A DNA stretch of 64,000 nucleotides from an uncultured delta proteobacterium. Lineage in GTDB: Bacteria; Myxococcota; Myxococcia; SLRQ01. The stretch lies in assembly GCA_963727485.1 (NCBI GenBank), contig CAVSGM010000005.1:32001-96000 (forward strand), in the 5' to 3' direction. Numbering within the stretch: position 1 is the stretch's first letter; every line of letters begins with the position of its first letter. Positions 5,192-15,403 of this stretch are shown piece after piece. A program made the translations under genes and the position numbers. Under the pieces are notes generated by a model, which searched no databases, was not told where the DNA came from, and saw only the letters and a list, made by a program, of their open reading frames with translations.

Positions 5192-5506
5192 ATGTACCTC
5201 GGACGTGTCATCGGCACCTGCGTGGCCACCCAGAAGGTCCCGGGCCTCGAGGGCAGCAAGCTCCTGGTGGTCCAGCCCCTCGACCACGCCGGCCGGAAGA
5301 CCCGGATCCCCGAGATCGCCGTGGACACGGTGCGGGCCGGGGTCGGCGATCACGTCTACCTGGTGGGCAGCCGCGAGGCGGCCGTGGCCCTCGACCCCTG
5401 GTTCGTGCCGGTGGACGCCGCCATCGTGGGCATCGTCGACGCGGTGGACGCCACCGACGACCCAGAGGGCCCCACCCCGTTTCACCGGGCCGGGGAGACG
5501 CCGTGA
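5192..5506 (+). CDS. EutN/CcmL-family BMC vertex (BMC-P) protein
   Basis: MYLGRVIGTCVATQK...KLLVVQPLD...IAVDTVRAGVGDHV...VDAAIVGIVD matches the EutN/CcmL pattern. Confidence 0.92.
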   Translation: MYLGRVIGTCVATQKVPGLEGSKLLVVQPLDHAGRKTRIPEIAVDTVRAGVGDHVYLVGSREAAVALDPWFVPVDAAIVGIVDAVDATDDPEGPTPFHRAGETP

Positions 5507-5781
5507 GGCTCTGCCGGGTCCTGGGGCCGGTGGTGGCCACCGTGGAGCACCCCAAGTTCCAGGGGCCGGCGATCTTCGCGGTGCAGCCCCTCGACGTCGA
5601 CGGCCTCGCCAGCGGTCCGAGCTTCGTGGCCATGGACCATGCCCAGGCGGGGGTCGGCGACGTGGTGCTGGTCCTCACCGAGGGCAACGGCACCCGGCAG
5701 ATCCTCGGCGACCCGCAGGGGCCGGTGCGCTCGATGATCGTCGGCATCGTCGACGCGGTGGAGCTCGCCGCCGATGGATAG
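5503..5781 (+). CDS. Second EutN/CcmL-family BMC vertex protein
   Basis: MRLCRVLGPVVAT...VAMDHAQAGVGDVVLV...IVGIVDAV; GTGA overlap with the previous gene. Confidence 0.9.
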   Translation: MRLCRVLGPVVATVEHPKFQGPAIFAVQPLDVDGLASGPSFVAMDHAQAGVGDVVLVLTEGNGTRQILGDPQGPVRSMIVGIVDAVELAADG

Positions 5782-6714
5782 GCGCCTCGCCGAGGCGGTG
5801 AGCCAGATGAGCCACCTCCTCTGGGAGCGGGGCTACGTGGCGAACCATGACGGCAACGTCTCCTGTCGCCTCGCCTCCGGCCGCTTCCTCGCCACCCCCA
5901 CCGCCGAGAGCAAGCGCCTCATCGAGCCCGGGTGGCTCCTGGAGGTGGACCCCGGGGGCAAGGTCCTCGCCGGGAAGCGCCGCCTCTTCGGCGAGTGGCA
6001 CCTCCACGCCGCCGCCTACCGGGTGCGCCCGGACGTGCAGGCGGTGATCCACGCCCACCCGCCGCACGCCACCGCCGCCGGCCTCACCGGCCTCGATTCT
6101 GTCCACCCCGCCGCTCCCCGAGGCGGTGGTGTCCCTGGGCCACGTGCCCACCGCCCGGCCGGCGCTCGCCGGGCCCCGAGGCCGCCGACGCCGCCGCCGA
6201 GTGCCTCGAGGTCGACGACGTGGTGCTCCTGCCGGGCAACGGGGTGCTCGCGGTGGGCGACGACCTGGAGCAGGCCTTCCTCCGCCTGGAGCTGGTGGAG
6301 CACCTGGCGCGGATCCTCACCGCCGCCGCGGCCCAGGGGACGGTGCGCCGCCTCCCGCCCGAGGCGGTGGAGGCGCTCCTGGAGAAGCGCGCCAAGGCCG
6401 GCCTCGGGGTGGAGGGCCGCCGGCGGAAGGCCGGGGGGCGTCCCGCGGATCGCCCGGATCCCCAGTCCGCGTCCGTGGTCGCGTCCCGGGCCGGCGCTGG
6501 CGCTGGCGCTGGCGCGACCGGCGCCGGGCCCGCCCGGCAGGTGGCCCTGGCCCGGGCCTCGTCCCTCACCGGGGACGCCCGCCTCGCCCAGCAGATCGCC
6601 GACGAGGTCCTCCGGCGCCTCGGCGACGGTGAGCCCCCGGCCGGCGCGCCTCCCCGCCGGCACCTCCCGGCCCCCGGCTACACCTCGTCGAGGAGCCGGC
6701 CGAGGAGTTCGTAG
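5774..6714 (+). CDS. Class II aldolase/adducin-family protein with candidate C-terminal encapsulation peptide; two apparent frameshifts (~6097, ~6168)
   Basis: DGNVSCR, FGEWHLHAAAY, VIHAHPPHATA, then LPEAVVSLGHVP and LPGNGVLAVGDDLEQAFLRLELVEHLA in successive frames. The true stop may be earlier than 6714. Confidence 0.85.
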
Positions 6715-12915: not shown

Positions 12916-14570
12916 GGGGCCCGCCGGTCACCCGGGGCGCCGGTGGGCGCCCGGGGCTCCTGGGCCGGCCCGGAGCGTCGGCGCTGGTGGCCCTGTGGCT
13001 GGGGCTGCTGGTCGCCGGAGCCCTGGCGCCGGCGCGGGCCGCCCAGGACGCGGGGACGCCGGCCGCCAGTCCCGCGGCCACCGCCAGCCCCCCGGCCACA
13101 ACCAGGCCGGCCAGAGTCGCCAAGCCCGCGGCCCCCAAGCAGATCCGCCTCCAGACCCTCCGCGAAGGCATGGAGCCCGTGCCCTTCTGGGAGCGCGGCG
13201 TCTCCTTCCTCGGCCTCTGGGTGATGGTCTTCCTCGGGTGGCTGATGTCCACCGACCGCAAGCGCTTCCCCTGGCGGGTGGTGCTCTGGGGCGTGGGGCT
13301 GCAGCTCGTCTTCGGGGTCTTCGTCCTCGAGACCACCGCCGGCCGGGACCTCTTCGGCTTCCTCAACGACGTGGTGATGCGGCTGCTCGACTTCACCAAC
13401 ATCGGCGCGAAGTTCATCTTCGGCGACTACCTGAACCTCAAGTACAGCTTCGCCCTCAACGTCCTGCCGACCATCATCTTCTTCTCGGCGCTGATGACCG
13501 TCCTCTACCACCTGGGGATCATGCAGTGGGTGGTCAAGGGCTTCGCCTGGCTGATGCAGCGGACCATGGGCACGTCTGGCTCCGAGACCCTCTCGGCGGC
13601 GGCGAACATCTTCGTGGGCCAGACCGAGGCCCCGCTGGTGGTCAAGCCCTTCGTGGAGACCATGACCGAGAGCGAGCTGATGGCGATCATGGTCGGCGGC
13701 TTCGCCACCGTCGCCGGCGGGGTGATGGCCGCCTACGTGGGGATGCTCTCGGGGACCTTCCCGGACATCGCCGGCCACCTCATCGCCGCCAGCGTCATGA
13801 GCGCCCCGGCGGCCCTGGTCCTGGCCAAGGTGATGATCCCCGAGACCGAGGCCTCGGCGACGGCGGGCAGCCTGCGCCTGGAGGTCGACCGCCCCGACGC
13901 CAACGTCATCGACGCCGCGGCCCGGGGCGCCGGCGAGGGGCTCCACCTCGCCCTCAACGTGGGCGCGATGCTCCTGGCCTTCCTCGCCCTCATCGCCCTC
14001 ATCGACTACGTCATCGAGCTCCCGGAGCTGTGGCACAACCGGGCCGCCTGGCACGCGGTGAAGCAGGCCCTCACCGCCCAGGGCCTCGCGCTGCCGGCGG
14101 GCTGCGCCAGGCCCGACGGCGCCGCCGCCTTCCAGCACTGCGTGAACGCCGGGGTCGCCGCCGGCCACCTCGCCCCGGGCGCCCACACCGCCTGGACCCC
14201 CATCTCCCTGGAGCGGATCCTCGGGTGGCTCTTCTGGCCCATCGCCTGGATCATGGGCACCCCCGCCCACGACTGCAGCGCCGTGGCCCGCCTCCTCGGG
14301 GAGAAGCTGGTCCTCAACGAGTTCGTCGCCTACGCCGATCTGGGCAAGCAGCTCCAGCACGGCGTCCACCTCTCCTACCGGGCGGTGGTCATCGCCACCT
14401 ACGCCCTCTGCGGCTTCGCCAACTTCGGGTCCATCGCCATCCAGATCGGCGGCATCGGGGGGATTGCCCCCAGCCGGCGTCATGATCTGGCGCGGATCGG
14501 ACTTCGTGCGATGATCGCGGGGACCCTGGCGGCCTTCATGACCGCCACCGTTGCCGGGATGCTCATCTGA
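12912..14570 (+). CDS. nupC: NupC/CNT concentrative nucleoside transporter
   Basis: FALNVLPTIIFFSAL, AANIFVGQTEAPL, GFATVAGGV, NEFVAY, YALCGFANFGSIAIQIGG. GTG start inferred from GTGA overlap. Confidence 0.92.
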   Translation: MRGPPVTRGAGGRPGLLGRPGASALVALWLGLLVAGALAPARAAQDAGTPAASPAATASPPATTRPARVAKPAAPKQIRLQTLREGMEPVPFWERGVSFLGLWVMVFLGWLMSTDRKRFPWRVVLWGVGLQLVFGVFVLETTAGRDLFGFLNDVVMRLLDFTNIGAKFIFGDYLNLKYSFALNVLPTIIFFSALMTVLYHLGIMQWVVKGFAWLMQRTMGTSGSETLSAAANIFVGQTEAPLVVKPFVETMTESELMAIMVGGFATVAGGVMAAYVGMLSGTFPDIAGHLIAASVMSAPAALVLAKVMIPETEASATAGSLRLEVDRPDANVIDAAARGAGEGLHLALNVGAMLLAFLALIALIDYVIELPELWHNRAAWHAVKQALTAQGLALPAGCARPDGAAAFQHCVNAGVAAGHLAPGAHTAWTPISLERILGWLFWPIAWIMGTPAHDCSAVARLLGEKLVLNEFVAYADLGKQLQHGVHLSYRAVVIATYALCGFANFGSIAIQIGGIGGIAPSRRHDLARIGLRAMIAGTLAAFMTATVAGMLI

Positions 14571-15403
14571 TGGACCAGAACACCTACGACCTGGTGCAGG
14601 AGGCCGTCGCGGTCGTCCGCGGACTCGGGGGCGAGCCCCCGGCCGTGGGCGTGATCCTCGGCTCGGGCCTCGGCGCCTTCGCCGACGAACTCGAGGACGC
14701 GGTGGCCCGCCCCTACGGCGAGCTGCCCCACTTCCCCCAGAGCGCCGTGGTGGGCCACAAGGGCCGGCTGGTGCTCGGCGGCTGCGGCGGGGTCCCCGTC
14801 GCGGTGATGCAGGGGCGGGTCCACGCCTACGAGGGCTGGACCATGGACCAGGTGGCCTTCGGGGCCCGGGTCCTCTGCGCCCTGGGGGTGAAGGCCCTGG
14901 TGGTGACCAACGCCGCCGGCGGCATCGGCGCGAAGCTCGCCCCCGGCGACCTGCTCCGGATCACCGACCACATCAACCTCGCGGGCCGCAGCCCCCTCAC
15001 CGGGATCAACGACGACCGCCTCGGGCCGCGCTTCCCGGACCTCTCCCACGCCTACGACCCGGACCTCGGCGACCTGGTGGAGCACCTGGCCGACGACGTG
15101 GGGGCGCCGGTGAAGCGCGGGGTCTACGCGTACATGGCGGGGCCGTCCTACGAGACGCCCGCGGAGATCCGCGCGCTCAAGGCCCTGGGCGCCGACGCGG
15201 TGGGGATGTCCACGGTCCCCGAGGTGGTCGCCGCCCGGCACATGGGCGTGCCGGTGGTGGGCATCTCGGTGATCACCAACCTCGCGGCGGGCCTCTCCGA
15301 GAAGGGCCTCTCCCACGAGGAGGTGAAGGAGGTCGCCGACCGGGTGACCGGCCGGTTCCTGGAGCTGCTCCGCCGCTTCATCCCCGCGGCGGTGGCGCAC
15401 TAG
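14570..15403 (+). CDS. punA: Purine-nucleoside phosphorylase (trimeric type)
   Basis: ILGSGLG, MQGRVHAYEG, TNAAGG, GPSYETPAE, GMSTVPEV, HEEV. Confidence 0.95.
   Translation: MDQNTYDLVQEAVAVVRGLGGEPPAVGVILGSGLGAFADELEDAVARPYGELPHFPQSAVVGHKGRLVLGGCGGVPVAVMQGRVHAYEGWTMDQVAFGARVLCALGVKALVVTNAAGGIGAKLAPGDLLRITDHINLAGRSPLTGINDDRLGPRFPDLSHAYDPDLGDLVEHLADDVGAPVKRGVYAYMAGPSYETPAEIRALKALGADAVGMSTVPEVVAARHMGVPVVGISVITNLAAGLSEKGLSHEEVKEVADRVTGRFLELLRRFIPAAVAH

Follow-up and report, generated by a model that had tools for sequence, protein, structure and literature searches.

The shell of the Haliangium ochraceum (HO) microcompartment is the primary structural model for bacterial microcompartments (BMCs), and its native function is enigmatic (Sutter 2021, PMC8217296). 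According to the available text of that paper, HO genomes encode DeoC orthologs with extensions resembling encapsulation peptides (EPs) elsewhere in the genome, and nucleic-acid catabolism was suggested. Here we analyzed a 64,000-nucleotide stretch of contig CAVSGM010000005.1 from an uncultured delta proteobacterium, referred to as the window. Within about 10 kb it contains two BMC-P vertex genes, a class II aldolase gene, deoC, genes for two nucleoside phosphorylases and a NupC transporter, and an operon encoding an exported metallo-beta-lactamase-fold (MBL) hydrolase. The BMC-P pair and the aldolase gene are a satellite of an HO-type microcompartment whose main locus is on another contig. 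Sequence comparisons make it probable that this microcompartment degrades deoxyribose-5-phosphate, and that its satellite sits within a nucleoside-catabolism cluster that also has a separately inherited operon for a predicted periplasmic nuclease. G000 denotes the genome holding the window, which is 93% complete. Other G numbers are relatives, C numbers are G000 contigs, L numbers are loci and f numbers are families.

The layout matches HO type I as presented in the available text of Sutter 2021. There, as here, the main locus contains only shell genes and an aldehyde dehydrogenase, the satellite contains two BMC-P genes and a PF00596 aldolase, and the shell set comprises one BMC-H, three BMC-P and one BMC-Ts. 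In G000, PF00936 gave four matches, all at 575-578 kb of C2. PF03319 gave three, one at the C2 locus and two in the window. The main locus (G000:C2:574.7-578.2 kb) encodes, in order, BMC-Tdp, BMC-H, BMC-P, an acylating aldehyde dehydrogenase and BMC-Ts. An earlier first-pass annotation of the window had noted that BMC-H/T and aldehyde dehydrogenase genes are outside it and proposed a genome search for PF00936 shell genes; all of these were located on C2. Among natural proteins in the PDB, BMC-H is best matched by HO-5815 and BMC-Tdp by HO-5816. The N-terminus of the dehydrogenase is extended and shows a hydrophobic pattern like that of EPs, and the hydrophobic moment of its residues 4-21 is low, 0.15. 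Unlike the HO type I arrangement in that text, deoC and pdp-nupC-pnp are located beside the satellite and not at a distant site, and the exported MBL-DUF3006-ComEA operon is inserted between the aldolase gene and deoC. A search across Myxococcota found BMC-P matches in 156 of 401 genomes, a tally that includes G000 and the unpublished G185, which enters no other result. Among the 80 best BMC-P loci of the genome collection, many shorter than 20 kb, the second BMC-P gene adjoins the first in all 80 and the aldolase gene is present in 78, so the clustering is inherited and not due to chance. These loci come from Myxococcales, Polyangia, Kofleriaceae, Hyalangium and Archangium.

Related chemistry is described for SPU BMCs (Dwyer, Sutter and Kerfeld 2024, PMC11585597), of which SPU5 is nearest. 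In the available text of that paper, SPU5 shares with our system a DeoC (DERA, PF01791) with an N-terminal EP, an aldehyde dehydrogenase, a BMC-P triplet, a BMC-Tdp, a class II aldolase with a C-terminal EP, and the lack of both a PduL-type transacylase (PTAC) and an SPU-type RPI. The SPU6 DERA, like DeoC here, has a Cys-rich stretch after the helix; the four mentions of 'cysteine' in the main text of the paper are unrelated to the DERA linker. The five SPU5 loci that it lists are not labelled Myxococcales. Unlike SPU BMCs as described there, the genes here occupy split loci of HO layout, and SPU-type RpiB was not found in G000. A genome check for rpiB had been proposed; it found two copies elsewhere, both without an extension and with the catalytic Cys kept, and neither is of the SPU type, in which Asp takes the place of the Cys and an EP is often present. 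Canonical SPU membership was therefore rejected. SPU-type microcompartments of Hodarchaeales, traced to Myxococcota in the available text of a preprint (Du et al. 2025, PMC12747264), share with the present system the DNA-as-nutrient model and the placement of DERA and aldehyde dehydrogenase in the shell. Their loci encode PTAC, two BMC-H proteins and a BMC-P that carries DNA-binding tails. Here only one BMC-H gene was found, and a genome search of G000 did not find PTAC.

An indication of the cargo comes from DeoC. Its barrel is intact, with the catalytic motifs EIDMV, VKTSTG and VKASGG. It is preceded by an amphipathic helix at residues 2-21 in the AlphaFold model (hydrophobic moment 0.70; pLDDT 88 in the first 10-residue block and 79 in the second) and by a low-confidence linker containing C29, C36 and C42 (residues 29-42, window 9411-9452). 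We searched for DeoC in 115 shell-positive and 30 BMC-P-negative genomes and could read its N-terminus in 69 and 27, respectively; G001 gave no usable match and was left out. At least three Cys within the 55 residues before the core were found in 67 of 69 shell-positive genomes versus 2 of 27 BMC-P-negative ones, counts that are not a statistical test because kin are not independent. The two exceptions among the negatives are G011, which is 92% complete and has a stray BMC-domain match, and G026, in which the Cys are upstream of the likely start. In a cross-check, PF00936 had no match in 28 of the 30 BMC-P-negative genomes, with single weak matches in G034 and G011, and matched in 25 of 26 shell-positive ones, G028 being the miss.

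The pattern of loss points the same way. In a quick tree of DeoC, in which several shell-negative sequences form long branches, seven shell-less f2 proteins form one clade (SH-aLRT 96) that is nested among shell-positive ones and has lost the Cys. They retain at most a decayed helix without Cys. The nesting and the decayed helix fit a history in which the shell was lost first and the tag decayed afterwards. At the shell-less f2 loci L185-L190 (G114, G063, G009, G034, G107 and G088) the flanking block is kept and the P-P-aldolase genes are cleanly absent; most keep the decayed DeoC helix, and G034 keeps an orphan BMC-T-like gene. These features are likely relics of microcompartment loss.

In the window and in homologs from L125-L184, the linker contains three to five Cys with lineage-specific spacing. 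In the family of G000 an Asp, Glu or Ser stands in place of the middle Cys. Strict CxxCxxC occurs in only 24 of 69 shell-positive DeoC proteins, and we therefore do not call the linker a ferredoxin motif. It likely binds metal.

Gene order links deoC to the satellite over a wide phylogenetic range. In the window deoC is 4.1 kb from the first BMC-P gene. Contiguous, same-strand P-P-aldolase-deoC is found in 18 genomes from seven families (f7, f14, f27, f29, f30, f31 and f32), and is followed by pdp and pnp in G039, G066, G081 and G109. For 111 shell-positive genomes the positions of both deoC and the best BMC-P match are known; the two lie at most 2.5 kb apart in 26 (5 of 72 in this class and 21 of 39 in other classes) and 2.5-12 kb apart in 17 more. 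Five of the 26, four in f12 plus G325, have a different, SPU-like layout. We infer, as the simplest history, that P-P-aldolase-deoC-pdp-pnp was ancestrally one unit and that insertion of opposite-strand genes interrupted it in this class. The full shell, the acylating dehydrogenase, the DeoC tag that tracks the shell and the contiguity of deoC with the satellite in distant families together make cleavage of deoxyribose-5-phosphate inside the BMC likely. DeoC would thus be its likely signature enzyme. The first-pass annotation had proposed such cleavage; the proposal holds up as likely, and the idea itself was already in Sutter 2021.

Two loci illustrate the SPU-like arrangement. L094 of G325, a member of the G000 family, and L306 of G002 (f12) are single loci with Ts, P, P, H and deoC, and G002 also has RpiB-like and aldolase genes. 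The G325 DeoC groups with those of f12, which suggests that its HO system was replaced by transfer.

Several observations weigh against this reading; those concerning the hydrolase are given with it below. deoC is more than 12 kb from BMC-P or on another contig in 68 of the 111 genomes, a figure that fragmented assemblies inflate. It was seen in only 3 of the 80 best BMC-P loci, and MBL in 4, so the link between satellite and deoC is often broken. A small hidden Markov model (HMM) of the encapsulation helix scored at least 10 bits in 16 of 37 same-class shell-positive DeoC proteins versus 1 of 27; it was trained on 20 of 32 other-class sequences and separated the groups poorly within the class. 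The CcmP-like second BMC-Tdp, which HO type I has in the available text of Sutter 2021, was not found in G000 by the PF00936 search or by tblastn of both halves at E 1, and we therefore class the system as an HO-like variant. G122 and G272 also show only four PF00936 matches. No NAD+ recycling route is evident near the shell genes; PduS, a component of SPU5 loci, was not recognized among the open reading frames flanking the main locus or the satellite, and no search for the PduS family was made.

The class II aldolase offers a different choice of signature enzyme. The HO BMC would then handle a fucose- or rhamnose-type deoxy-sugar phosphate, as in PVM, GRM5 and ACI, with DeoC as secondary cargo. 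No other gene accompanies the BMC-P pair as constantly as the aldolase gene (78/80), whose sequence is strongly conserved and which belongs to PF00596 like the aldolases of PVM and GRM5 in the available text of Sutter 2021 (PMC8217296). Its C-terminal tail forms a helix with a hydrophobic moment of 0.53. Across 92 homologs the Glu and HxH never vary, nor do an N-terminal motif of the ANHDGN type and one more His following the conserved Glu. The site where FucA would predict the third metal His is His in some homologs and Asn in others. The substrate of the aldolase is probably not fuculose-1-phosphate. None of the NCBIfam models for fuculose or rhamnulose aldolases was reached, and the intact G122 copy scored at most 85.5 bits against a cut-off of 250, which counts against this alternative. 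In addition, no kinase, isomerase or sugar transporter was recognized among the neighbors queried, which are deoC, pdp and pnp, and the DeoC tag tracks the shell almost perfectly. We consider it improbable that the aldolase defines the substrate, and retain DeoC in that role.

The features of the window discussed here are as follows.

5192..5506, plus strand: BMC-P vertex protein 1, HO-type satellite (PF03319, 92.7 bits).
5503..5781, plus strand: BMC-P vertex protein 2 (PF03319, 79.3 bits).
5774..6714, plus strand: class II aldolase with a C-terminal encapsulation-peptide-like helix (PF00596 in two frames).
6678..7217, minus strand: FHA-domain protein, last gene of the minus-strand unit (PF00498; position kept in G122, G272 and G325).
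7199..8107, minus strand: exported ComEA-like putative DNA-binding protein with three HhH modules (PF12836, HHH_3, three times; TIGR01259, 180 bits against a cut-off of 152).
8104..8361, minus strand: DUF3006 protein without a signal peptide (PF11213).
8358..9260, minus strand: exported stand-alone ComEC/Pce-type MBL hydrolase, predicted phosphodiesterase or nuclease.
9261..9326, no strand: divergent intergenic region of 66 bp, candidate deoC promoter.
9327..10202, plus strand: DeoC/DERA with an N-terminal amphipathic helix and a Cys-rich linker (TIGR00126, 273 bits).
10213..11406, minus strand: TPR protein between deoC and pdp (present in G272, absent in G122).
11611..12915, plus strand: pyrimidine (thymidine) nucleoside phosphorylase, pdp (TIGR02644 and NF004490 above cut-off).
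12987..14570, plus strand: NupC/CNT nucleoside:cation symporter, start codon uncertain (PF01773, PF07670 and PF07662; TIGR00804, 433 bits against a cut-off of 442).
14570..15403, plus strand: purine nucleoside phosphorylase, pnp (TIGR01700 above cut-off).

Pfam and NCBIfam profile searches confirmed all of these genes. The two BMC-P genes, the aldolase, the triple-HhH ComEA, deoC, the nucleoside phosphorylases and NupC are thus where the first-pass annotation had placed them, and the divergent region that it described, from the start of MBL to that of deoC, measures exactly 66 bp. Absent from that annotation were the DUF3006, FHA and TPR genes, the N-terminal tag on DeoC and the two aldolase insertions described below. 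Two BMC-P genes and the aldolase gene on the plus strand are followed on the minus strand by FHA, ComEA, DUF3006 and MBL. After the gap come deoC on the plus strand, the minus-strand TPR gene, which separates deoC from pdp-nupC-pnp, and then pdp, nupC and pnp on the plus strand, rpmE and ligA. The conserved block around the region also carries unrelated genes, namely TIGR02300, a GltJ-like zinc-ribbon gene, a DksA-like gene, rpmE and ligA.

The aldolase gene is spread over three frames in the assembly, with one-base insertions at about 6097 and 6167. Independent short-read contigs, from runs that cover a small share of the stretch (0.33 at best), lack base 6097 in X1, X2 and X3 and base 6167 in X1 and X2. 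Record 9 of X2 covers both positions with one other letter and two gaps. Therefore the insertions are assembly errors and the gene is intact in nature; a pseudogenized aldolase was rejected. The BMC-Tdp gene at G000:C2:574960 shows a similar apparent frameshift. A large upstream TPR gene (window 1-5156) is also apparently frameshifted, and is a single open reading frame of 1680-1820 residues in G272 and G122. Indel errors seem to be scattered across the assembly.

The hydrolase encoded between the aldolase gene and deoC is related to the nuclease domain of ComEC. Its best PDB match is the ComEC nuclease domain 9ic4 (E 3e-46), its match to TIGR00361 covers the C-terminal part alone and stays below cut-off, and its N-terminus is signal-peptide-like. 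The Competence channel domain (PF03772) is absent from it, and the sole genome match to this domain is a full-length ComEC on C9; hence the MBL protein is not an uptake channel. The exported ComEC-type hydrolase of the first-pass annotation is supported in fold and export, and it has no channel. As described in the available text of Silale et al. (2021, PMC8579336), the C-terminal MBL nuclease domain of ComEC and Pce/CbpE share with it the fold, the ligand framework, export and an HhH DNA-binding neighbor. Unlike that ComEC, the MBL protein here stands alone, is paired with DUF3006 and has HxHxDH in place of HxDxDH. All 50 aligned stand-alone homologs share HxHxDH. In the proven ComEC nuclease the Mn-binding motif II reads HxDxDH, and a His-to-Asp change distinguishes ComEC from phosphorylcholine esterase in the same paper.

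This difference bears on a second alternative, in which the BMC burns deoxyribose phosphate and MBL-DUF3006-ComEA is an unrelated neighbor by synteny, for example a Pce-like envelope phosphodiesterase or an accessory transformation factor. With HxHxDH instead of HxDxDH, the substrate may not be DNA. Nucleoside genes are rare near homologs elsewhere: among 80 metagenome homologs, of which 16 are on loci of at least 16 kb, DUF3006 is adjacent in 30 and an HhH module nearby in 8, and pdp is found in 1 and deoC in 0. Three Myxococcota orthologs (G258, G233 and G003) lie elsewhere, with no nucleoside gene in the 14-15 kb read. The conserved block includes unrelated genes, so that the MBL-deoC adjacency could be one ancestral insertion carried along among kin that are not independent. 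Other features count against an unrelated neighbor. MBL stays directly head-to-head with deoC across f1 and f2 while up to ~10 kb of adjacent genes vary. In the shell-less G321, where deoC and the shell genes have been lost from the site, MBL-DUF3006-ComEA faces pdp-pnp head-to-head. The operon partner is an HhH DNA-binding protein, and HhH modules recur near the 8 distant homologs. We regard an unrelated neighbor as a serious possibility, though one with somewhat less than an even chance. Recent horizontal acquisition of the operon was rejected, since its GC content at third codon positions (0.92-0.97) matches that of its neighbors.

At L279:6455-8993, on a metagenome contig with a GC content of 0.40, pdp, MBL with a lipoprotein-like N-terminus and DUF3006 form a same-strand run with a pdp-MBL gap of 31 bp. 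This is possibly an independent link of MBL to nucleoside catabolism.

The distribution of the operon among relatives shows what it follows. We searched for stand-alone MBL orthologs, at a cut-off of at least 185 bits, in 80 genomes, 58 shell-positive and 22 shell-negative. An ortholog was found in 24 of them, 15 shell-positive and 9 shell-negative. It is within 2.5 kb of deoC and on the opposite strand in 18 genomes, 10 shell-positive and 8 shell-negative. In G325 and in one G198 copy a contig end truncates the gene on its promoter side. The f2 genomes without a shell retain DUF3006-MBL(-MBL), deoC, the DksA-like gene, a gene of the phosphoglucomutase (PGM) family, a BMP-type ABC transporter and pdp; P-P-aldolase alone is missing from them. 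Since MBL is beside deoC in shell-positive and shell-negative genomes alike, the operon follows nucleoside catabolism within this class, by function or by shared descent, and not the BMC. It probably acts there as a periplasmic nuclease, as far as sequence can tell, and the BMC is the older, losable downstream module.

The first-pass annotation had proposed a closer connection, a dedicated and co-regulated DNA-foraging module in which ComEA and MBL are coupled specifically to the BMC. All genes are within 10.2 kb, the MBL operon and deoC share 66 bp, and PilQ and three 5'-nucleotidases are present in G000. Against these stand the tally of MBL orthologs (15/58 shell-positive, 9/22 shell-negative) and the restriction of triple-HhH ComEA, which is beside MBL in only 2 of 23 other genomes read, G321 and G325, both of the G000 family. 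The shell-positive G122 of the same family has no MBL, DUF3006 or ComEA at the site and yet keeps the deoC promoter layout, and the shell-less G321 keeps all three. G272 has MBL alone. The shell genes also form a separate upstream transcription unit, with the main locus on another contig. Such a module is therefore unlikely, and a BMC-specific link of the foraging genes is largely refuted: MBL is kept in shell-negative genomes and missing from most shell-positive ones, and ComEA is confined to the G000 family. Across Myxococcota, contiguity of the satellite with deoC recurs in several families, and the pairing of MBL with deoC does not depend on the shell. The ComEA of the window has an N-terminal sequence resembling a signal peptide, and G000 has two other, shorter ComEA-like genes elsewhere. 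One of the 80 satellite loci, L011, has a ComEA-like HhH match without MBL.

Structure prediction of an MBL-DUF3006 complex gave a score of 0.41 against 0.06 for the best control and weakly supports a contact. Of 157 solved complexes, 116 attain the mark used, as do 2 of 215 mismatches; only 18 of those solved complexes, along with both mismatches, attain it at 0.60 or below. At least 95% of contacts recur between runs, and the partner has a pLDDT of 81. Because DUF3006 has no signal peptide, any contact with MBL would, speculatively, precede export. At their C-terminus, Myxococcota DUF3006 proteins (window 8104-8140; L185-L201, L288-L293) have a conserved acidic-hydrophobic tip, G-[D/S/N]-[F/L/I]-x-L, a candidate docking motif.

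The 66-bp region contains a candidate leaderless sigma70-type promoter for deoC, with TTGACG at 9291-9296 and a TA-rich hexamer ending 6 nt before the ATG. The TTGACR ... TA[C/A]A layout is kept in G272 and G122. A consensus promoter scan of the region found no promoter at its threshold. Public sequencing runs listed no RNA run containing the stretch, a result that does not bear on expression.

These results suggest a route for nucleosides. NupC would import them, and Pdp and Pnp would release the bases and (deoxy)ribose-1-phosphate in the cytosol. The next step would require a mutase. The first-pass annotation had suggested looking for deoB, which was not found in G000; in 40 relatives it exceeds the cut-off in 7, in 4 of which it lies no more than 5 kb from deoC. 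Enzymes of the PGM family are able to catalyze the phosphopentomutase reaction. A PGM-family enzyme (C1:794247-795962) likely stands in for DeoB in G000. A PGM/PMM-family gene 52% identical to it is two genes after deoC in f2 clusters without deoB (L185:7245-8969), and we consider the PGM-family gene a candidate non-DeoB phosphopentomutase on this basis. A literature search found nothing bearing on such a substitution. After the mutase, DeoC and the aldehyde dehydrogenase likely act inside the shell, where the co-packed acylating dehydrogenase would convert acetaldehyde to acetyl-CoA. As no PduL-type transacylase was found, acetyl-CoA would leave the shell as such. Upstream, DNA may be converted to nucleotides by MBL, an uncertain step, and these to nucleosides by 5'-nucleotidases for import by NupC. 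There is a nearly even chance that the exported MBL protein, aided in this family by triple-HhH ComEA, digests periplasmic DNA as a feeder for nucleoside catabolism generally and not as part of the BMC.

A more ambitious picture can be drawn from the same data. HO BMCs would be RpiB-less organelles that burn DNA sugar in about 40% of sampled Myxococcota, with a metal-binding DeoC linker. A channel-free periplasmic ComEC-type nuclease with bound DUF3006 and, in this family, a triple-HhH receptor, co-transcribed from the deoC divergent promoter, would feed them DNA as food. Taken as a whole we find this picture doubtful.

Part of this is already in print, as far as the available texts show: the HO layout, EP-tagged DeoC and the nucleic-acid-catabolism idea (Sutter 2021), SPU chemistry (Dwyer 2024) and a BMC that uses DNA as food (2025 preprint). 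The occurrence of deoC beside HO satellites may already be shown in the supplement or locus diagrams of Sutter 2021. To this our analysis adds evidence, from operon structure and from patterns of loss, in favor of DeoC being the HO signature enzyme, and the tie of MBL-DUF3006 to deoC. Literature searches found no described link of this MBL or ComEA with deoC or an HO locus and no publication for 'DUF3006'; one on M. xanthus, deoxyribose-phosphate aldolase and predation found no mention of the enzyme.

The comparative evidence sharpens a passing suggestion into a specific test, with DeoC as cargo, deoxyribose-5-phosphate as substrate and deoxynucleosides as inducer. The MBL-DUF3006 pair gains a candidate role. 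With BMC-P matches in 156 of 401 genomes of the phylum, the finding is relevant to the recycling of dead-cell DNA by myxobacteria.

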